64,000 nucleotides of DNA, taken from positions 1 to 64,000 of the forward strand of contig NZ_SBIV01000009.1 in the NCBI RefSeq assembly GCF_004765795.1, written 5' to 3'. Source of the DNA: Halorussus marinus. Its GTDB lineage: Archaea > Halobacteriota > Halobacteria > Halobacteriales > Haladaptataceae. Under the pieces are notes generated by a model, which did not search any database, was not told the origin of the DNA, and saw nothing but the letters and a program-made list of their open reading frames with translations. Positions 6,421 to 15,575 of this stretch are shown here, piece after piece (the first letter of the stretch is position 1; each line of letters begins with the position of its first letter). Made by a program: the position numbers and the translations under genes.

Positions 6421-6846
6421 ATGGCAGAAGTCCCGTTCCACTACGTCGATCTGCGCGCGTTCTGCTACGCCACCGAAGACGACAAGCGCGTCGAGCAGGC
6501 GCTCCGGACGTTCCTCCCCGAGGAGATCGAGATCGAGCGCGCCGAGAGCGAGGGCCACCACGGCGACCGCATCGTGGTGCTGTCCTCGCGGGTCGAGACC
6601 GCCGACGAGATGCGCCACGTCCTCTCGAAAGTGGCGGAGCTCCCGGACGCAGAGAGACTGCTCTCAGAACTCGACGAGCGAGTCGACGACAACTGCTCGC
6701 TTTTCTTGCGGTTCGACAAACAGGCGGCCTACCGCGGGGAGATCGCGCTCGGGGAGGGCATCACGTTCCGTGCGAAAGTCGAGGCCTACCCCGCCGAGAA
6801 GGCGGCCGCGGTCGAGAACGCCCGCGAGGCGCTCTCGGCGCTGTGA
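6421..6846 (+). CDS. Archaeal RNA-binding protein (DUF54 family)
   Basis: FCYATEDDKRVEQAL, EGHHGDRI, LFLRFDKQAA. Confidence 0.85.
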   Translation: MAEVPFHYVDLRAFCYATEDDKRVEQALRTFLPEEIEIERAESEGHHGDRIVVLSSRVETADEMRHVLSKVAELPDAERLLSELDERVDDNCSLFLRFDKQAAYRGEIALGEGITFRAKVEAYPAEKAAAVENAREALSAL

Positions 6847-7056
6847 GGGCGGACGATCGGGGACTTCGGCCCGGTTCGGGACGCCGTCTCTCGACGACGG
6901 TCGGGCGAGGGCGATACCGTCACCTCCGGTTCGTGAGTATAAGGTCCCTTAATCAAACATAGTGTCTTAGATGACGTTGACGTCTTGCGGTTTTGCTCGC
7001 GGCGAGCGCGATCGGCGACTCGAATCGTCGGGTCGCGATCTGTCGCAGCGGTACGC

Positions 7057-7063
7057 TTAAATA
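7057..7063 (+). promoter_or_regulatory. TATA box of the leuA transcript
   Basis: TTAAATA 27 nt upstream of ATG 7090, i.e. leaderless spacing. Confidence 0.65.
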
Positions 7064-7089
7064 GGAGAGTGACCCGAGGTAGGAGTACA

Positions 7090-7170
7090 ATGTCCGACAA
7101 CGACATGTCCTCCTCCGGTACCAGCCGGGGGGATCGAGTTCTTCGAGGGCACGTTAGCTTCCACTACTGA
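7090..7170 (+). CDS. Leaderless upstream ORF overlapping leuA out of frame (26 aa); possibly the true leuA N-terminus before a +1 shift
   Basis: MSDNDMSSSGTSRGDRVLRGHVSFHY*; contains G6 at 7127-7132 and GTT CTT CGA at 7138-7146. Confidence 0.55.
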   Translation: MSDNDMSSSGTSRGDRVLRGHVSFHY

Positions 7171-8317
7171 CGTCGACTCCGCGCGGGTCTTCGATACGAC
7201 CCTGCGCGACGGTGAACAGGCACCGCGGACGTCTTTCTCCTACGACGAGAAACGCGCCATCGCCGCGACCTTGGACGACATGGGCACCCACGTAATCGAG
7301 GCTGGGTTCCCGGTCAACTCCGACGCCGAGTTCGAGGCCGTCAGCGACATCGCCGCGAGCACGAACACGACCGTCTGCGGGCTGGCCCGCGTGGTCGACA
7401 AGGACGTGGAGGCCGCACTCGACTCCGGCGTCGAGATGGTCCACGTCTTCGCCTCGACCAGCGACGTCCAGCTGGAAGACTCCATGCACGCCACCCGCGA
7501 GGAGGTCGTCGAGCGCTCGGTCGCGGCGGTCGAGCGCGTCACGGAGGCGGGCGCGACAGCGATGTTCTCGCCGATGGACGCCACCCGAACCGACGAGGAC
7601 TACCTCGCCGAGGTGGTCGAGGCGGTCTCGGAGGCGGGCGTCGACTGGATCAACATCCCCGACACCTGCGGGGTCGCCACGCCGGCGCGGTTCGCCGAAC
7701 TGGTGACGACGGTCGACGAGCACACCGACGCGCGCATCGACGTCCACACCCACGACGACTTCGGGATGGCGTCGGCGAACGCGGTCGCCGGCTTCGAGGC
7801 CGGCGCCGATCAGGCGCAGGTCTCGGTCAACGGGATCGGCGAGCGCGCGGGCAACGCGGCCTACGAGGAGGTCGTGATGACCGTCGAGAGCGTCTACGGC
7901 GTCGACACCGGTATCGACACGACCCGGATCACCGAGCTGTCGCGGGCGGTCGAGGAGTACAGCGACGTCCCGGTGCCCGCCAACAAGCCGATCGTCGGCG
8001 ACAACGCGTTCGCCCACGAGAGCGGCATCCACGCCGCGGGCGTCATCGAGAACTCAGACACCTTCGAGCCGGGCGTGATGACTCCCGAGATGGTGGGGGC
8101 AACGCGGGAGTTCGTCCTGGGCAAACACACCGGAACGAACTCGGTCCGCAAGCGACTGGAGGATTCGGGCTTCGAGCCGACCGACGACGAGGTCCGGGAG
8201 ATCACCCGCCGGGTGAAAGACTACGGCGCCGAAAAGAACCGCGTCACGACGACCGACCTCGAACGGTTCGCCCGCGAGGCCGGCGTCGCCCGCGAGGAAA
8301 CGGAGGTCAGCGCCTGA
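7133..8317 (+). CDS. leuA: 2-isopropylmalate synthase (LeuA family, short form without the C-terminal regulatory domain); start codon unresolved
   Basis: IEFFEGTL...VFDTTLRDGEQ, HTHDDFG, GIGERAGNA, HESGIH; no ATG/GTG/TTG between the in-frame stop at 7070-7072 and TTG 7271. Confidence 0.9.
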   Translation: MEFFEGTLASTTDVDSARVFDTTLRDGEQAPRTSFSYDEKRAIAATLDDMGTHVIEAGFPVNSDAEFEAVSDIAASTNTTVCGLARVVDKDVEAALDSGVEMVHVFASTSDVQLEDSMHATREEVVERSVAAVERVTEAGATAMFSPMDATRTDEDYLAEVVEAVSEAGVDWINIPDTCGVATPARFAELVTTVDEHTDARIDVHTHDDFGMASANAVAGFEAGADQAQVSVNGIGERAGNAAYEEVVMTVESVYGVDTGIDTTRITELSRAVEEYSDVPVPANKPIVGDNAFAHESGIHAAGVIENSDTFEPGVMTPEMVGATREFVLGKHTGTNSVRKRLEDSGFEPTDDEVREITRRVKDYGAEKNRVTTTDLERFAREAGVAREETEVSA

Positions 8318-8435
8318 TGGCGCCTCGCCGGTTCGCCCCCGTCCGACAGCCGCGCGCGGCGGTCGCCGTCGTTCCGGCGGGTCGCCGGCCCGGCGTGGCA
8401 ACCCCGCGCGCTTCGGGCAACCGTTGCCGAGCGGG

Positions 8436-8447
8436 CAAGAGTTATTA
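8436..8447 (+). promoter_or_regulatory. BRE/TATA of an internal ilvB promoter
   Basis: CAAGAGTTATTA, with TTATTA 30 nt upstream of ATG 8477. Confidence 0.6.
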
Positions 8448-8476
8448 CAGTGGGGCCCGGTACCATTCGACTACAG

Positions 8477-8560
8477 ATGCGACGGTCACTCGCCACTCGG
8501 CCGCTGGCCCGCACGGGGAGCGGCGTGGCCGTCGAGCGCGTGATTATTGTAGGGGCTTGA
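8477..8560 (+). CDS. Putative ilv leader peptide (27 aa) with tandem Val/Ile codons
   Basis: MRRSLATRPLARTGSGVAVERVIIVGA*; codons GTG ATT ATT GTA at 8540-8551. Confidence 0.65.
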   Translation: MRRSLATRPLARTGSGVAVERVIIVGA

Positions 8561-8580
8561 GCCCCTACTACACCTCTTTT
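8549..8580 (+). terminator. Hairpin plus U-tract in the ilvB leader (putative attenuator)
   Basis: GTAGGGGC-TTGA-GCCCCTAC (8549-8568) followed by TACACCTCTTTT. Confidence 0.6.
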
Positions 8581-8699
8581 CCGACCCGACTCGCCGCATC
8601 GATTCCGAACAGCACGCCGCGCGCTCGACAGATGAATTCGACACACGACGCCAGAACCCAGACGTATCGCACACATCCAACCCCGGAGGTGAGCCGACC

Positions 8700-10487
8700 G
8701 TGAGCGACCCGGTCAGCCCATCGTTCGACGCCGAAACCGAAGCCGAAGCCGAGTTAGAGCCAGAGCCCGGCGAGGACCCGTCGGCGACCGACGCCGAGCC
8801 GGGTCGGACCGGCGCCCACTCGGTCGTCGCGGCGCTCGAAAACGCCGGCGCGGAGGCCATGTTCGGCGTGCAGGGCGGTGCGATCATGCCCGTCTACGAC
8901 GCGCTGTACGACTCGGACCTGCGCCACGTCATGATGGCCCACGAGCAGGCCGCGGCTCACGCCGCCGACGCCTACGGCATCGTCTCGGGCACGCCGGGGG
9001 TCTGTCTGGCGACCTCCGGACCGGGCGCGACCAACCTCGTGACCGGGATCGCGGACGCCGACATGGACTCGGACCCGATGGTCGCGCTCACCGGGCAGGT
9101 GCCGACAGACTTCGTCGGCAACGACGCCTTCCAGGAGACCGACACCACCGGCGTCACCGCCCCGATCACGAAGACGAACTACTTCGCCGACCACGCCGAC
9201 ACGGTCGGCGACACCGTTGGGGAGGCGTTCGCCTACGCCGCCGCGGGGCGACCGGGCCCGACGCTGGTCGACCTCCCCAAGGACGTGACCCAAGACGAGA
9301 CCGCGGTCGAGCCCGGGGACGCGACCGTCCCGGACACCTACGACCCCCAGACTGAGGCCGACGACGAGGCGGTCGCCGAGGCGGCCCGACGGCTCGAACG
9401 CGCCGAAAAGCCCGTCGTCCTCGTCGGCGGCGGCGTCATCAAGGGCGACGCCACCGAGGAGTTGCGGGCGTTCGCCCGCGAGTACGAGATCCCGGTCGCG
9501 ACCTCGATGCCCGCGGTCGGCGCGTTCCCCGAGGACGACGACCTCTCGCTGGAGATGGTCGGGATGCACGGCACCGGCTACGCCAACATGGCGACGACCC
9601 ACTGCGACGTGATGCTCGCGGTCGGCACCCGGTTCGACGACCGGCTCACCGGCGGGGTCGACACGTTCGCGCCCGAGGCCGAGGTGCTCCACGTCGACAT
9701 CGACCCCGCGGAGATCTCCAAGAACGTCACGGCCGACGTGGCGCTGATCGGCGACGCCGCCACCGTCCTCGACCAACTCGACGCCGAGATGGAGCGGGCC
9801 CCTGACTGCCGAGAGTGGCGCTCGCAGTGCTGGACGTGGAAGAGCGAGTACCCGATGGACTACGCCACGCCCGACGACGAGCCCCTCAAGCCCCAGTTCG
9901 TCGTGGAGGCGTTCGACGAGGCGACCGGCGACGACACCATCGTCACCACCGGCGTCGGCCAACACCAGATGTGGGCGGTCCAGTACTGGACGTACACCGA
10001 ACCCCGGACGTGGGTCTCCTCTCACGGGCTCGGGACGATGGGCTACGGCCTGCCCGCGGCCATCGGCGCGAAGTTCGCCGCCGACGACGACCAGCAGGTC
10101 GTCTGCTTCGAGGGCGACGGCTCGTTTTTGATGACGATGCAGGAGCTGTCGGTCGCGGTCCGCGAGAACCTCGACATCACCGTCGCGGTGCTCAACAACG
10201 AGTACATCGGGATGGTCCGACAGTGGCAAGACGCCTTCTACGACGGCCGCCACTCGGCCTCGGAGTACAACTGGTGTCCCGAGTTCGAACCCCTCGCCGA
10301 GGCGTTCGGCGCGCAGGGCTTTACCGTCTCGGACTACGACGAGGTGGCCGACACCGTCGAGGCCGCGCTGGCCTACGACGGCCCGTCGGTCGTCGACGTC
10401 CGCATCGACCCCGCGGAGAACGTCTACCCGATGGTCCCGAGCGGCGGGGCAAACGGGAAGTTCGCCCTCTCGGAGGACCAGCTATGA
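8700..10487 (+). CDS. ilvB: Acetolactate synthase large subunit
   Basis: FGVQGGAIMP, HEQAAAHAADAY, TSGPGATN, GDGSFLM..NN ThDP motif; SD GGAGGTGA at 8685-8692. Confidence 0.97.
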   Translation: MSDPVSPSFDAETEAEAELEPEPGEDPSATDAEPGRTGAHSVVAALENAGAEAMFGVQGGAIMPVYDALYDSDLRHVMMAHEQAAAHAADAYGIVSGTPGVCLATSGPGATNLVTGIADADMDSDPMVALTGQVPTDFVGNDAFQETDTTGVTAPITKTNYFADHADTVGDTVGEAFAYAAAGRPGPTLVDLPKDVTQDETAVEPGDATVPDTYDPQTEADDEAVAEAARRLERAEKPVVLVGGGVIKGDATEELRAFAREYEIPVATSMPAVGAFPEDDDLSLEMVGMHGTGYANMATTHCDVMLAVGTRFDDRLTGGVDTFAPEAEVLHVDIDPAEISKNVTADVALIGDAATVLDQLDAEMERAPDCREWRSQCWTWKSEYPMDYATPDDEPLKPQFVVEAFDEATGDDTIVTTGVGQHQMWAVQYWTYTEPRTWVSSHGLGTMGYGLPAAIGAKFAADDDQQVVCFEGDGSFLMTMQELSVAVRENLDITVAVLNNEYIGMVRQWQDAFYDGRHSASEYNWCPEFEPLAEAFGAQGFTVSDYDEVADTVEAALAYDGPSVVDVRIDPAENVYPMVPSGGANGKFALSEDQL

Positions 10488-11152
10488 CCGAAGGCCTCCA
10501 AGGTCCGGCGCCCGACGAGCGCCCACACCCGGACGGTCGGCGCACCAAGCAGGGAACCCGGATCGACCCCGAGGTCGAGGCCGAGCAGGACACCCGGACC
10601 GCGGTCGTCTCCGCGCTGGTCGAACACGAGCCCGGCGTGCTCGCGAAGGTCTCCGGGCTGTTCTCCCGGCGCCAGTTCAACATCGAGAGCCTGACGGTCG
10701 GACCGACCACCGTCGAGGGCAACGCCCGGATCACGCTCGTGGTCGAGGAGACCGACGACGGCATCGACCAGGTCAAAAAGCAGGTCGAGAAGCTCCGGCC
10801 CGTGATCCAGGTCGGCGAGCTCGACGACGACGCGGTCTGTGCCGAACTCGTGGTCCTGAAAGTCCGGGGCGACGAGCCCGACAAGGTCCACGCGATCACC
10901 CAGATGTACGAGGGCCAGACCCTCGACGCCGGCCCGCGGACCATCACGGTCCAGATCACCGGCGACCAGCAGAAGATCGACGACGCGGTCGACGCGTTCC
11001 GGCAGTTCGGCATCATCGAGATCGCCCGGACCGGCCAGACCGCGCTCGCCCGCGGCGACACGCCGACGACGCCCGGCGAGGAGCCGGGCCACGAGAAAGC
11101 CGCCGAGAAGACGAGAAAAGACGACACCCGAACCGGAACATACGATGACTGA
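10484..11152 (+). CDS. ilvN: Acetolactate synthase small (regulatory, ACT) subunit
   Basis: [32 protein letters not shown] overlap with ilvB. Confidence 0.95.
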
Positions 11153-12200
11153 CGAATTCGACACCGAGATCTACTACGACGACGACGCGAACAGCGCGAA
11201 GATAGACGACCGGACCGTAGCCGTACTCGGCTACGGGAGCCAGGGACACGCCCACGCCCAGAACCTCGCCGACAGCGGGGTCGACGTGGTCGTGGGGCTC
11301 CGCGAGAGCTCCGCGTCGCGGAGCGCCGCGGAGGCCGACGGGCTCCGCGTGGCGACGCCGGCCGACGCCGCCGCCGAGGCCGACGTGGTCTCGGTGCTGG
11401 TGCCCGACACGGTCCAGCCCGCGGTGTACGACGACATCGAAGACGGGCTGGAACCCGGCGACACCCTCCAGTTCGCCCACGGCTTCAACATCCACTACGG
11501 CCAGATCGAGCCGCCCGAGGACGTCGACGTGACCATGGTCGCGCCCAAGTCCCCGGGCCACCTCGTCCGGCGCAACTACGAGAACGACGAGGGGACCCCG
11601 GGCCTGCTGGCAGTGTATCAGGACGCGACCGGCGAGGCCAAGTCCGAGGCGCTGGCGTACGCGAAGGCCATCGGCTGTACGCGCGCGGGCGTCGTCGAGA
11701 CCACGTTCCGCGAGGAGACCGAGACCGACCTGTTCGGCGAGCAGGCGGTGCTCTGTGGCGGCGTCACCGAGCTCATCAAGACCGGCTACGAGACGCTTGT
11801 CGACGCCGGCTACTCGCCGGAGATGGCGTACTTCGAGTGTCTCAACGAGATGAAGCTCATCGTCGATCTGATGTACGAGGGCGGGATGCGCGAGATGTGG
11901 GACTCGGTGTCGGACACCGCCGAGTACGGCGGGCTGACTCAGGGCCCCGAGATCATCGACGAGAACGTGCGCCAGAACATGGAGGAGACGCTCGAAGGCG
12001 TCCAGAACGGCGAGTTCGCCCGCGAGTGGATCGTCGAGAATCAGGCCGGCCGACCGGCCTACCACCAGCACAAGCAACGCGACATCGAACACGAGATCGA
12101 GGACGTCGGCGCCGAGCTCCGCGACCTGTTCGCGTGGAGCGAAGACGAGGAGACGGCCGACGAGGAGACCGAACAGGAGCGAGTGAGCGCAGATGACTGA
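11145..12200 (+). CDS. ilvC: Ketol-acid reductoisomerase
   Basis: [37 protein letters not shown]. Confidence 0.97.
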
Positions 12201-12474
12201 CACACACACCACGGACCGATCGATGCGAGACGTGAGCCACACCCACCCGTACGGCGACCACGGCGCGGTAAACCGACCGTTCGAGCGCGGCCCGATCGTC
12301 GTCGCGGACGGCGGCGAGAGAGTCGACGAGTCCGAATCCGCCGACGACGAGGAGCGATCCGAATCGCCCGAGAAGATGAAAGACGTCGACCACACCCCGC
12401 CGCGGGACGCCGAGAGCGCGAATCGGGTCTTCGAGCGCGGCGGAGCCGAAGAGCCCGTAGAGTCCGAAGAATGA
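12193..12474 (+). CDS. Small acidic hypothetical protein inside the ilv-leu operon
   Basis: 93 aa overlapping the ilvC end; internal repeat (MRDVSHT..FERG / MKDVDHT..FERG). Confidence 0.75.
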
Positions 12475-12545
12475 ACGTACGATCCGCTTTTCCGGTCGCA
12501 ACGGCGAACAGCCGACGGCGTCCCACGGCGGAGGGGTCCCGATGA
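12471..12545 (+). CDS. Possible 24-aa bridging mini-ORF
   Basis: [28 protein letters not shown] overlaps with both the upstream stop and the leuC start. Confidence 0.35.
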
Positions 12546-13963
12546 GCGAGGGGACCCTCTACGACAAGGTGTGGGACCGCCACAAGGTGACCACGCTCCC
12601 GACCGGACAGGACCAGCTGTTCGTCGGGCTCCACCTCGTCCACGAGGTGACAAGCCCGCAGGCGTTCGGGATGCTTCGGGAGCGCGACATGGAGGTCGCG
12701 TATCCCGAGCGCACCCACGCGACCGTCGACCACATCGTCCCGACCGACGACCTCGACCGGCCCTTCGAGGGGGCGGCCGAGGAGATGATGTCCCAACTGG
12801 AGGAGAACGTCCGGGAGGCCGGCATCGAGTTCTCGCATCCCGGTACCGGCGATCAGGGCATCGTCCACGTCATCGGCCCAGAGCAGGGGCTCACCCAGCC
12901 CGGCATGACGGTCGTCTGTGGCGACAGCCACACCTCCACGCACGGCGCGTTCGGCGCGCTGGCGTTCGGGATCGGCACCTCCCAGATCCGGGACGTGCTG
13001 GCGACCGGTACCGTGGCGATGGAGAAAAAAGACGTCCGACGCGTCCGGGTCGACGGCGAGCTCGGCGAGGGCGTCGAGGCCAAGGACGTGATCCTGGAGA
13101 TCATCCGCCGGCTCGGCACCGACGGCGGCGTCGGCTACGTTTACGAGTACGCCGGCGAGGCGATCCGGAACCTCGACATGGAGGGCCGGATGAGCATCTG
13201 CAACATGTCGATCGAGGGTGGCGCCCGCGCGGGCTACGTCGAGCCCGACGAGACCACCTACGAGTGGCTCCGGGAGACCGACGCCTTCGAAGACGACCCC
13301 GAGCGCTTCGAGGAGCTCAAGCCCTACTGGGAGTCGATCGCGTCGGACGACGACGCCGAGTACGACGACGAGGTCGTCATCGACGGCTCCGCGCTCGACC
13401 CCGTGGTGACGTGGGGCACCACGCCCGGACAGGGCGTGGGGATCGACGACCCGATCCCCGCCCCGGAAGACCTCCCCGAGGACAAACAAGATACCGCCCG
13501 GCGCGCACAGGAGCACATGCGCGTCGAACCCGGCGAGACGATGGCGGGCTACCCGATCGACGTCGCCTTCCTGGGCTCGTGCACCAACGCGCGACTCCCG
13601 GACCTCCGGCGGGCCGCCCGCGTGGTCGCGGGGCGGGAGGTCCACGACGACGTGCGCGCGATGGTCGTGCCCGGCAGTCAGCGCGTGAAGGCCGCCGCCG
13701 AGCGCGAGGGCCTCGACGAGGTGTTCCGCGAGGCCGGCTTCGACTGGCGGGGCGCGGGCTGTTCGATGTGTCTCGGGATGAACCCCGACCAGCTCGAGGG
13801 CGACGAGGCGTGTGCCTCCTCGTCGAACCGCAACTTCGTGGGCCGACAGGGGAGCAAGGAGGGCCGGACGGTGCTGATGAACCCCCGGATGGTCGCCGCG
13901 GCCGCGATCGAGGGCGAGGTCACGGACGTCCGCGACCTCCCCGAGACGGAGGTGAAAGCATGA
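12542..13963 (+). CDS. leuC: 3-isopropylmalate dehydratase large subunit
   Basis: [33 protein letters not shown]. Confidence 0.97.
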
Positions 13964-14586
13964 CCGAGGACGTCGAGACCGTCGAGCGAGTCACCGGGAC
14001 GGGCGTGCCCGTCCGGGGCAACGACATCGACACCGATCAGATCATCCCCGCCCGGTTCCTGAAAGTCGTCACCTTCGACGGGCTGGGCCAGTTCGTCTTC
14101 CAGGACGTGCGGTTCACCGACGACGACGAGCCGAAAGACCACCCGTTCAACGAGGATCGGTTCCGCGACGCCTCGATCCTCGTGGTCAACGCCAACTTCG
14201 GCTGTGGCTCCTCGCGCGAGCACGCCCCGCAGGCGCTCAAGCGGTGGGGCATCGACGCCATCGTCGGCGAGAGCTTCGCGGAGATCTTCGCGGGCAACTG
14301 CCTCGCGTTGGGGGTGCCGACCGTGACCGCCGATCAGGCGGAGATCGAGGCGCTTCAGGAGTTCGTCGACGAGAACCCCGACGCCGAGATCGACGTCGAC
14401 GTGGACGACGAGACCGTCTCGTACGGCGACCGCGAGATCGACGCGACCGTCGACGACGCCCAGCGCCGGGCGCTCGTCGAGGGCGTCTGGGACACGACCG
14501 CGCTGATGAAATCGAACGCCGAGGCGGTCGCGGAGACCGCCGCGAGCCTGCCGTACATCGAGGCCGGCGCGGGAGGCGACGCGTGA
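13960..14586 (+). CDS. leuD: 3-isopropylmalate dehydratase small subunit
   Basis: [24 protein letters not shown]. Confidence 0.97.
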
Positions 14587-15575
14587 CCGAGACGATCGCG
14601 GTCGTGCCCGGCGACGGCATCGGCCGGGAGGTCACCCCCGCGGCCCGCGAAGTGCTTGCGGCGGTCGATCCGGACTTCGAGTTCGAGACGGCCGAGGCGG
14701 GCGACGAGGTGGCCGAAGAGACCGGCGAACCGCTCCCCGACGCGACCCGCGACCTCGTCGCGAGCGCGGACGCGACGCTGTTTGGCGCCGCCGGGGAGAC
14801 CGCCGCGGACGTGATCTTGCCGCTCCGGCGCGCGGTCGAGTCGTTCGCCAACGTCCGGCCCGTCCGGGCGTACCCCGGCACCGACGCGCTCCACCCCGAC
14901 ACCGATCTGGTCTTCGTCCGCGAGAACACCGAAGGCGTCTACGCGGGCCACGAGACCGAGATTGCGCCGGGCGTAACGACCCTGACACGGGTCGTTACCG
15001 AGGCGGCGTCCGAGGAAATCGCGCGTTACGGCTTCGAGTACGCCGCCGATCGCGAGAAGAGCGTGACCATCGCTCACAAGGCGAACGTGATGCGGACGAC
15101 CGACGGCCTGTTTCTGGAGACCGCCGAGGCGGTCGCCGACGAGTTCGACGTGCCCTACGACGACGCGCTGATGGACGCGCTGGCGATGCATCTGGTCCAG
15201 CGCCCCGAGGAGTACGACGTAGTGGTGTGTCCGAACCTCGCGGGCGACGTGCTCTCGGACCTGGCGGCCGGTCTCGTCGGCGGACTCGGCCTGTTGCCGA
15301 GCGCGAACGTCGGCCCCGAGCGGGGCGTGTTCGAGCCGGTCCACGGCACCGCGCCAGACATCGCCGGCGACGGCGTCGCGAACCCGAGCGCCGCGATGCT
15401 GTCGGCCGCGCTCCTGTTAGAGTACCTCGGCCACGACCGGGCGGGCGAGCGGGTCCGAAGCGCGGTCGAACAGACGCTCTCGACCGGGCCCCACACGCCT
15501 GATCTGGGCGGGTCGGCGACGACGCGAGACGTGACTGACGCGGTGTTGGCGTCGCTCGCGGACTCGGAGAAGTAG
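14583..15575 (+). CDS. leuB: 3-isopropylmalate dehydrogenase
   Basis: [37 protein letters not shown]; operon context. Confidence 0.95.

Follow-up and report, generated by a model that had tools for sequence, protein, structure and literature searches.

Bacterial leu leader attenuators control leucine genes through a ribosome that reads Leu codons in a leader, and comprise a cluster of control codons, a terminator/antiterminator and a downstream gene with its own start. The +1 frameshift site of Ty1 consists of CUU in the P site followed by the rare Arg codon AGG (CUU-AGG-C). Here we describe an element at the start of leuA, predicted to encode a short 2-isopropylmalate synthase, in the haloarchaeon Halorussus marinus. 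The stretch analysed, hereafter the window, covers 64,000 nucleotides (nt) of contig NZ_SBIV01000009.1 (positions 1 to 64,000, forward strand). The element combines a predicted leaderless upstream open reading frame (uORF) with a leuA frame in which no canonical start precedes the catalytic motif. From its anatomy and conservation, LeuA is probably produced through a programmed +1 frameshift of the ribosome that would respond to leucine.

In +1 shifting, a hungry A-site codon and P-site re-pairing act jointly (PMC2377451), and on 70S ribosomes an upstream hairpin and an internal Shine-Dalgarno (SD) sequence have been reported as interchangeable stimulators (PMC6321510). According to the available part of the review by Atkins et al., no functional starvation-specific trans-frame products were known in 2016 (PMC5009743). 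One demonstrated archaeal frameshift, of the −1 type, is listed in the available sections of De Lise et al. 2021 (PMC8211752).

A start problem is on record for the Haloferax volcanii leuA2 gene, HVO_1510, for which Pfeiffer & Dyall-Smith 2021 weighed initiation at an in-frame CTG against slippage from an out-of-frame ATG, and already speculated about leucine control (PMC8305020). This gene belongs to the same orthologue set as ours. In the accessible portion of that study, DNA was compared only within Haloferax, and neither a shift site nor a Leu sensor codon, a hairpin, the methanogen loci or the parallel in cimA is mentioned. The Haloferax protein is well covered in proteomics, and an 18-amino-acid (aa) in-frame peptide across the site was never detected (PMC8305020 Suppl. 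S2.f), which is what a shift predicts. Apart from the 2021 speculation, we found no demonstration of a leucine-sensing shift in the literature searched, in which subscription papers were sparsely covered; the parts of PMC13759103, PMC4454726 and PMC7261190 at hand added nothing direct.

Conservation of the uORF and its frame relation to leuA

The first-pass annotation of the window had noted that leuA lacks an in-frame start before its catalytic DTTLRDGEQ codons, and all of its coordinates check (Table 1). The motif precedes the earliest in-frame ATG, GTG or TTG, and leuA lies in the +1 frame relative to the uORF. Translation of the uORF confirmed CTT as its single Leu codon. The predicted trans-frame LeuA has a computed length of 408 aa, and its first 17 residues would come from the uORF.

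Two assembled contigs from public runs (not raw reads) cover the region. Contig X1/1, possibly from the source or a near strain, spans 6917–7500 with two substitutions and no gaps against the window, and X2/25 spans 7079–7301 with five substitutions and no gaps. The leuA-frame stop upstream of the uORF is strain-variable, because X1 has a G at 7072. A leuA orthologue was present in all 221 Halobacteria genomes searched. We took 158 Halobacteria loci, 30 from the window's own family and the rest either top hits or chosen for genus spread. Of these, 149 were distinct, and 148 were analysed after one with a short flank (L088) was dropped. L247 and L271 were anchored by hand, and codon-level counts use 146 loci.

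As the start we took the first ATG lying 26 nt or more downstream of the box with the highest AT content. By this rule the uORF-frame ATG came first in 145/148 loci. The proposal that the ATG nearest to the transcription start site (TSS) is consistently out of frame in orthologues was thereby borne out. In L095 and L105 the first ATG past the box is in the leuA frame, with the uORF ATG present as well. The box-to-ATG spacing was 33–35 nt in 104/148 loci. Between the box and five codons before DTTLRD, 118 of the 148 had no in-frame ATG, GTG or TTG; among the remainder, 25 had scattered in-frame GTG or TTG and five an ATG. The observation is confirmed as real: it exceeds chance and is not an assembly error.

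The distance from the uORF ATG to the Leu codon fell into seven classes (14, 15, 16, 17, 18, 19 or 21 codons), always in whole codons. Stops between the two were found in 0/145 loci in the uORF frame, 34/145 in the leuA frame and 58/145 in the third frame. Upstream of the putative sensor codon, the uORFs held only three Leu codons in 2411. The uORF stop follows 6–9 codons past Leu in 134/148 loci, and ten loci have leuA-frame stops 20–29 nt ahead of Leu.

A small hairpin spanning the start codon (7090–7106 in the window) was predicted in many loci. Two loci, L151 and L178, keep a site-like sequence without an ATG-started uORF.

Codons and register of the proposed shift site

All 148 loci have a Leu codon at the site (CTT 143, CTC 5). 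The Val codon before it is GTT in 147/148, and the Arg codon before that is CGA in 143 and CGG in three (n = 146), itself preceded by Gly, Asp or Glu. The hand-anchored L247 and L271 likewise read Arg-Val-Leu. Across the 146 loci, the exchanges CGA/CGG, GTT/GTG, CTT/CTC and GAT/GAC leave the uORF-frame residues unchanged but alter those of the leuA frame (E to G, F to C, F to S and I to T, respectively), the Arg, Val and Leu codon changes amounting to only a handful of independent events. Two codons on, the leuA-frame Gly uses four codons, Thr four and Leu six, and the uORF-frame changes are radical. Selection therefore reverses frame past Leu, which places the switch at or right after the Leu codon. 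The first-pass annotation had suggested checking GTTCTTC for conservation at synonymous positions: the Arg-Val-Leu codons are kept, and the G6 run is not conserved.

The codon following Leu was CCA in 103 loci, CGA in 34, CAA in seven and CGC in two (n = 146). GTT, CTT and CGA are minor codons in the genome, with 5%, 4.5% and 12% of their codon families.

At +1, NTT-Y always yields UUY, and TTA-C, CTA-T, CTC-C and TTG-G cannot re-pair. Because Leu-codon variants are unable to re-pair, the P-site codon should be the one before Leu, with Leu in the A site; for the window, Val GUU in the P site and Leu in the A site is the most likely arrangement. The first-pass annotation had instead pictured a P-site slip on CUU-N in prfB or Ty1 style. 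This register did not hold up: the Leu codons include CTT, CTC, CTA, TTA and TTG, with variants that cannot re-pair, five methanogen loci have the uORF stop directly after Leu, and the preceding NTT is near-invariant. It is also unfit because leucine shortage would not promote such a slip. Placing Leu in the A site mends the leucine logic, since only an A-site Leu codon slows when leucine is short.

As a side observation, the fourth leuA-frame codon past the site (7154–7156 in the window) is a rare Leu codon (TTA 69, TTG 14, CTA 12; n = 146), TTA making up 1.2% of Leu codons genome-wide. This rare codon makes a third-frame stop in 116/146 loci; its role may be to bypass the Leu isoacceptor that is starved, or to catch ribosomes that shifted wrongly. 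We disregarded the tRNA gene counts from ARAGORN, which false hits had inflated in this GC-rich genome.

A predicted 5′ stimulator

A hairpin lies within the uORF, and its core ends 6 nt ahead of the Val codon. With the register taken as the best pairing, a choice equally given to the controls, all six core pairs formed in 97 of 107 distinct regions, versus 5.4% with swapped and 7.3% with shuffled 5′ arms. Compensatory changes were found at three positions (G-C/C-G/U-A 53/29/25; G-C/C-G 59/48; C-G/G-C 84/11). Taken by itself, the hairpin of the window does not differ significantly from dinucleotide shuffles (z −0.8). The G6 run, which the first-pass annotation had pointed out in the overlap, has no role as a run and turned out to be the 3′ arm of this covarying hairpin.

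Pairing with the 16S 3′ tail is a second option for the G-rich 3′ arm. This anti-SD duplex reaches −14.6 kcal/mol in the window; the halophile median of −6.5 is modestly above coding controls, 14% of which are as strong. Anti-SD pairing as the sole halophile stimulator was rejected, being weak across loci, and the G>C covariation favours the hairpin. In many methanogen loci GAGGGAUC pairs with the 16S 3′ tail at ~−10 kcal/mol, computed with the halophile tail as proxy, and ends 2 nt before the P-site codon. Methanogen loci with weak 16S pairing tend toward a hairpin instead (29 loci listed).

Methanogen-type and basal leuA loci

Of 95 distinct leuA loci from outside the Halobacteria, 63 had x-Arg-like-NTT-Leu in a +1 uORF, a tally that shows codon variety and not Leu frequency, as the filter demanded Leu. 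The Leu codons of the 63 were TTA in 46, CTT in nine, CTA in seven and CTC in one, preceded by TTT (45), CTT (17) or GTT (1). Both basal Halobacteria loci have TTT-TTG. The uORF stop comes immediately past Leu in five methanogen loci. In L162 and L169 the stretch open to a shift, bounded by a leuA-frame stop and the uORF stop, is only five codons long and ends at Leu.

By hand count, 30 of the 32 motif-less loci have an ordinary in-frame ATG. Motif loss accompanies such an ATG in several methanogen families (L170, L280, L284, L304–L337). The element seems to have been lost more than once, because motif-less loci are sometimes closely related to motif-bearing ones in the tree (L170 vs L183). 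In two methanogen loci, L165 and L186, a 16S rRNA gene lies within ~2 kb of leuA.

The cimA paralogue and RF03001

In the genome of the window, a +1 uORF lies ~75 nt before the DTTLRD codons of cimA (L141) and reads Glu-Arg-Phe-Ile; the encoded CimA carries the regulatory domain. A +1 uORF with the Ile codon ATT was found in 31/31 distinct halophile cimA loci, which are the top matches of a cimA search plus two further loci (including L190–L218, L265 and L266). ATT follows TTT in nine and GAA in 22. Three methanogen-type cimA loci read Arg/Cys-Phe-Ile. The residue at the site matches the pathway, Leu at leuA and Ile at cimA. Disruption of the Haloferax cimA leads to Ile auxotrophy (PMC4300041).

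The cimA elements come in two types, a short TTT-ATT and a GAA-ATT with the RF03001 hairpin, the core of which ends 6 nt before GAA in 22/22 GAA-type loci. The first-pass annotation had brought up an Rfam 'leuA-Halobacteria' motif upstream of such leuA genes. We found no match to RF03001 in the window at the gathering threshold (47.9 bits), and none at E ≤ 10 over 6800–8800. A scan of 20 loci gave matches in two of three cimA (L199, L207), 0/15 halophile leuA and 0/2 methanogen leuA. RF03001 is named for leuA and sits on the isoleucine-pathway paralogue cimA. The main text of PMC5737381, from which the family may stem, does not mention it by name. The Haloferax volcanii cimA uORF was called translated by ribosome profiling (Ribo-seq), as a leaderless frame (sORFribo45/HVO_0644A), and its printed DNA contains GAA-ATT (PMC10117724 Suppl. 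Table 5D).

The LeuA protein and its family

The window LeuA has the HMGL-like and post-HMGL domains (Pfam PF00682 and PF22617). As the first-pass annotation had read from the translation, it lacks the C-terminal leucine-binding regulatory domain, LeuA_dimer (PF08502) being absent in the Pfam search. All 143 complete halophile LeuA bodies measure 305–395 aa from the DTTLRD anchor. The window protein scored below the NCBIfam cut-offs (467 < 517 bits for NF002085, 424 < 485 for TIGR02090). Public family models range from 345 to 453 aa, because the starts are uncertain. The closest named relatives are Halorussus proteins, with up to 91–92% identity.

In a quick tree of 160 columns, built without a characterised reference, the LeuA, CimA and short AksA-like clades were separate, and the window protein fell within LeuA (Shimodaira–Hasegawa-like approximate likelihood ratio test, SH-aLRT, 96–99). 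Together with its position ahead of the ilv and leu genes, this supports the prediction of an archaeal 2-isopropylmalate synthase LeuA. The protein is sister to a full-length basal form that already bears the Leu site, and the element therefore predates the loss of the allosteric domain. That the shift replaces allosteric feedback, as had been suggested at the first pass, is tenable only for the Halobacteria: methanogen leuA and halophile cimA pair the element with a regulatory domain.

LeuA is poor in Leu (12/393, or 3.1%, vs 8.1% genome-wide), within the lowest 0.1% of 1438 long ORFs. CimA has a normal Leu content (8.3%) and a low Ile content (2.4% vs 3.6%).

Proposed mechanism and alternative explanations

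We propose that ribosomes start at the leaderless ATG 7090 and read 17 codons, which would leave Val-tRNA on GUU in the P site and an empty A site over the Leu codon. With charged Leu-tRNA plentiful, reading would continue in frame to the stop at 7170 and yield a 26-aa dead-end peptide. With charged Leu-tRNA scarce, the P-site tRNA would re-pair from GUU to UUC (two of three pairs) and enter the leuA frame to give the full-length enzyme. The slip would be helped by the hairpin or the anti-SD duplex 6 nt upstream, and the ribosome itself would sense the leucine shortage. The first-pass outline of a leaderless out-of-frame uORF, a required +1 shift and a role for leucine is supported; several of its details are not. 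It also seems fairly likely that Halobacteriota use a family of 'hungry-codon' frameshift switches for branched-chain synthesis, with Leu at leuA and Ile at cimA. Each switch would combine a leaderless uORF with a slippery P-site codon, a 5′ duplex lying 6 nt before it and a single codon cognate to the pathway, and would make enzyme synthesis directly dependent on uncharged tRNA.

Several points weigh against a leucine-responsive shift. The loci are related, and the counts are not independent events. L030 has its ATG in the third frame; its G run counts one G more (G8), which may be a homopolymer error. Re-pairing from GUU-C to UUC gives two of three pairs with a first-position mismatch, and in L084 the P-site codon is GTG, for which no re-pairing is possible. 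The nucleotide invariance of TTC-TTC is weak evidence, because TTC and GAG are preferred in any case; where Phe is conserved in leuA, the column has TTC in 130–144 of 140–146 loci. RNAalifold found no consensus pairs on a MAFFT alignment of the loci, because loop lengths vary by lineage. Among the 63 motif-bearing methanogen loci, whose choice already demanded Leu, 18 carry, by hand count, an in-frame ATG as well, no more than 70 nt from DTTLRD, and the shift may therefore be dispensable there. In Haloferax the TSS was mapped 2–4 nt downstream of the ATG, with a stated uncertainty (PMC8305020), and the leuA uORF is not among the entries listed in the available parts of two Haloferax Ribo-seq tables (rich medium).

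A different use of the same uORF would be sensing of leucine by stalling, with LeuA started separately at a non-AUG codon, either fresh or by re-initiation, and no frameshift. This fits the Leu/Ile match and the nearby uORF stop (6–9 codons past Leu in 134/148), and near-cognate codons lie 3–4 codons past Leu (ACG in 96/146 loci; CTG, TTG, ATA). An in-frame CTG was proposed for Haloferax, and the earliest identified Haloferax peptide begins just before DTTLR (PMC8305020). We nevertheless consider it unlikely. No candidate codon is conserved (ACG/ACA/ACT/ACC; six Leu codons and ATA), Gly-Thr-Leu vary synonymously as translated residues do, the leuA-frame stops 20–29 nt before Leu in ten loci exclude upstream starts such as CTG, and the near-invariant NTT before Leu would be left unexplained. 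A start at ATC 7133, raised at the first pass, fares no better, the homologous codon being GTC in 77 loci, ATC in 60, AAC in seven and ACC in two (n = 146). Improbable, too, is a +1 shift with Leu-tRNA in the P site (CUU-C to UUC), or a −2 slip of Leu-tRNA onto the same UUC. By established pairing rules the CTT-C of 141/146 loci re-pairs well with a GAG anticodon, but at +1 the variants CTC-C, CTT-G, CTA-T, TTA-C and TTG-G have weak re-pairing or none, the codon that follows Leu differs among loci without a shared identity (Pro, Arg, Gln, Ala or stop), the cimA Ile codon could not slip in this way, and starvation for the P-site amino acid would not promote the shift.

The minor codons GTT, CTT and CGA could slow decoding at all times, and a +1 shift at a fixed low rate would then limit LeuA without any leucine response. 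To this we give little credence: the amino acid is kept and not the codon (five Leu codons, including CTC, major in halophiles), the sensor becomes Ile in the Ile-pathway paralogue, and Leu is avoided both upstream in the uORF and in LeuA. RNA polymerase slippage in G6, by which some transcripts would lose one G and fuse the frames, is very improbable, as most loci have a C within the run (GCG 88, GGC 11; n = 146 at that codon), its bases covary with the hairpin arm, and the uORF frame is still selected past it. Sequencing or assembly error, or a strain-specific pseudogene, deserves next to no weight. The overlap does hold a homopolymer, and the first-pass annotation had considered one extra G; against this stand the two independent contigs without an indel, the same frame relation in 145/148 loci, an intact leuA body of 374 codons and the orthologue in every genome searched.

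Gene neighbourhood and the ilvB leader

The features of the locus are collected in Table 1. In the cluster that follows leuA, ilvB and leuC were named from Pfam thiamine pyrophosphate domains and aconitase, and the remaining names were read off translations.

Table 1 Features of the leuA locus in the Halorussus marinus window.
Feature	Position	Strand	Basis or remark
TATA-like box TTAAATA	7057–7063	+	Sequence; 33 nt 5′ of the uORF ATG; putative promoter role, predicting a leaderless mRNA
leuA-frame stop TGA upstream of the uORF	7070–7072	+	Sequence
uORF (P0002), frame 0, 26 codons	7090–7170	+	ATG 7090; stop TGA 7168–7170
Hairpin within the uORF	7111–7132	+	Arms 7111–7119 and 7124–7132; core pairs end at 7131; predicted 5′ stimulator
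G6 run	7127–7132	+	Sequence
GTT-CTT-CGA	7138–7146	+	Sequence
Predicted slippery P-site GUU-C (Val)	7138–7141	+	Putative re-pairing on UUC 7139–7141
Lone Leu codon CTT, predicted A-site sensor ('hungry' codon)	7141–7143	+	Leu in 148/148 Halobacteria loci
leuA main frame (+1)	7142–8317	+	Stop 8315–8317; short 2-isopropylmalate synthase (predicted)
Catalytic DTTLRDGEQ codons	7193–7219	+	Sequence
Earliest in-frame canonical start of leuA, TTG	7271	+	ORF analysis
Branched-chain amino acid cluster: ilvB, ilvN, ilvC, small ORF, leuC, leuD, leuB-like	8700–15575	+	ORF list

In the gap between leuA and ilvB (region 8441–8703), a second leaderless uORF (8477–8560) ends Ile-Ile-Val-Gly-Ala on a hairpin. 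Its ATT-GTA-GGG is near-invariant among 105 distinct loci. Counted from the Val codon, at least 20 codons of the third (−1) frame are free of stops in 105/105; in 81/105 this frame closes with an RTGA that overlaps the ilvB start, and it has its own ATG in only 74. A +1 shift from this leader into ilvB was rejected, as a stop follows at once in all 105 loci. The pattern may reflect a −1 shift, or a coupling ORF by which ribosomes are passed on to ilvB, and the leader may be a third, −1 version of the switch family. Table S1 of Gelsinger 2020 (rich medium, and hence uninformative here) lists no start, annotated or alternative, from ilvB back to the gene preceding it. A rough search of the genome for more uORF/+1 cases gave no convincing new case; it missed leuA and cimA themselves.

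Implications and comparison with known systems

If the proposed mechanism is right, starvation-induced frameshifting would be used to switch on the pathway of the missing amino acid, a control logic not yet shown in any organism within the literature searched. It would provide a natural amino-acid-sensing programmed frameshift, a class without a known example in the available text of the 2016 review (PMC5009743), and would account for leucine control of LeuA despite the missing allosteric domain. It would also settle the annotation problem named for HVO_1510, put right the N-termini of LeuA and CimA in hundreds of entries, and give RF03001 a function.

Among known systems, prfB, the gene of release factor 2 (RF2), shares a short frame-0 leader and a product made only after a +1 P-site slip (PMC2377451, PMC5009743, PMC6321510), as well as, in the consulted parts of these sources, a slow A site as sensor and an SD-like or hairpin duplex beside the E site. 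The leuA locus has the frame-0 ORF overlapping a startless +1 ORF, the re-pairable P site and a predicted 5′ stimulator, as in a prfB-type switch. It lacks the CUU-UGA site with an A-site stop, its own site being GUU-CUU-CGA. In prfB the A site is UGA and the signal is the release factor; at leuA it is a sense Leu (or, at cimA, Ile) codon, and the predicted signal is the amino acid. The prfB P site is CUU-U, whereas the archaeal leuA element has Val GUU-C (Phe/Leu NUU in methanogens), with weaker re-pairing.

Ty1 likewise shows a +1 shift driven by a slow codon and a trans-frame product, and the leuA element has no CUU-AGG-C. Antizyme is a metabolite-responsive +1 shift (PMC5009743), and the leuA element lacks its A-site stop. 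Unlike in both, the proposed sensor at leuA is the aminoacyl-tRNA supply for the pathway's own product. In contrast to leu attenuators, the element has one Leu codon and a startless gene, and its output would be the reading frame and not transcription; a bacterial-style scan found no terminator-like site at the leuA leader. The archaeal fucA1 (−1), HSTV-2 (+1) and Mg-chelatase cases are interrupted genes expressed, or predicted to be expressed, via frameshifting (PMC8211752, PMC5009743). As far as the available parts of these sources go, they are −1 or viral and without amino-acid sensing, whereas the leuA element is chromosomal, +1, and found across Halobacteria and several methanogen families.

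RF03001 likewise has a hairpin, 6 nt, a predicted P-site codon, a pathway-cognate codon and a LeuA-family gene downstream. Its hairpin sequence is unrelated to that of leuA, and it is the Ile-version sister element. The broad idea was in print as speculation; comparison among loci now adds the proposed site and register, the geometry of the hairpin and a connection to RF03001. Our verdict is that the recoding signal is real and deeply conserved, and that it would work like the prfB switch while being a member of neither prfB, Ty1 nor RF03001.

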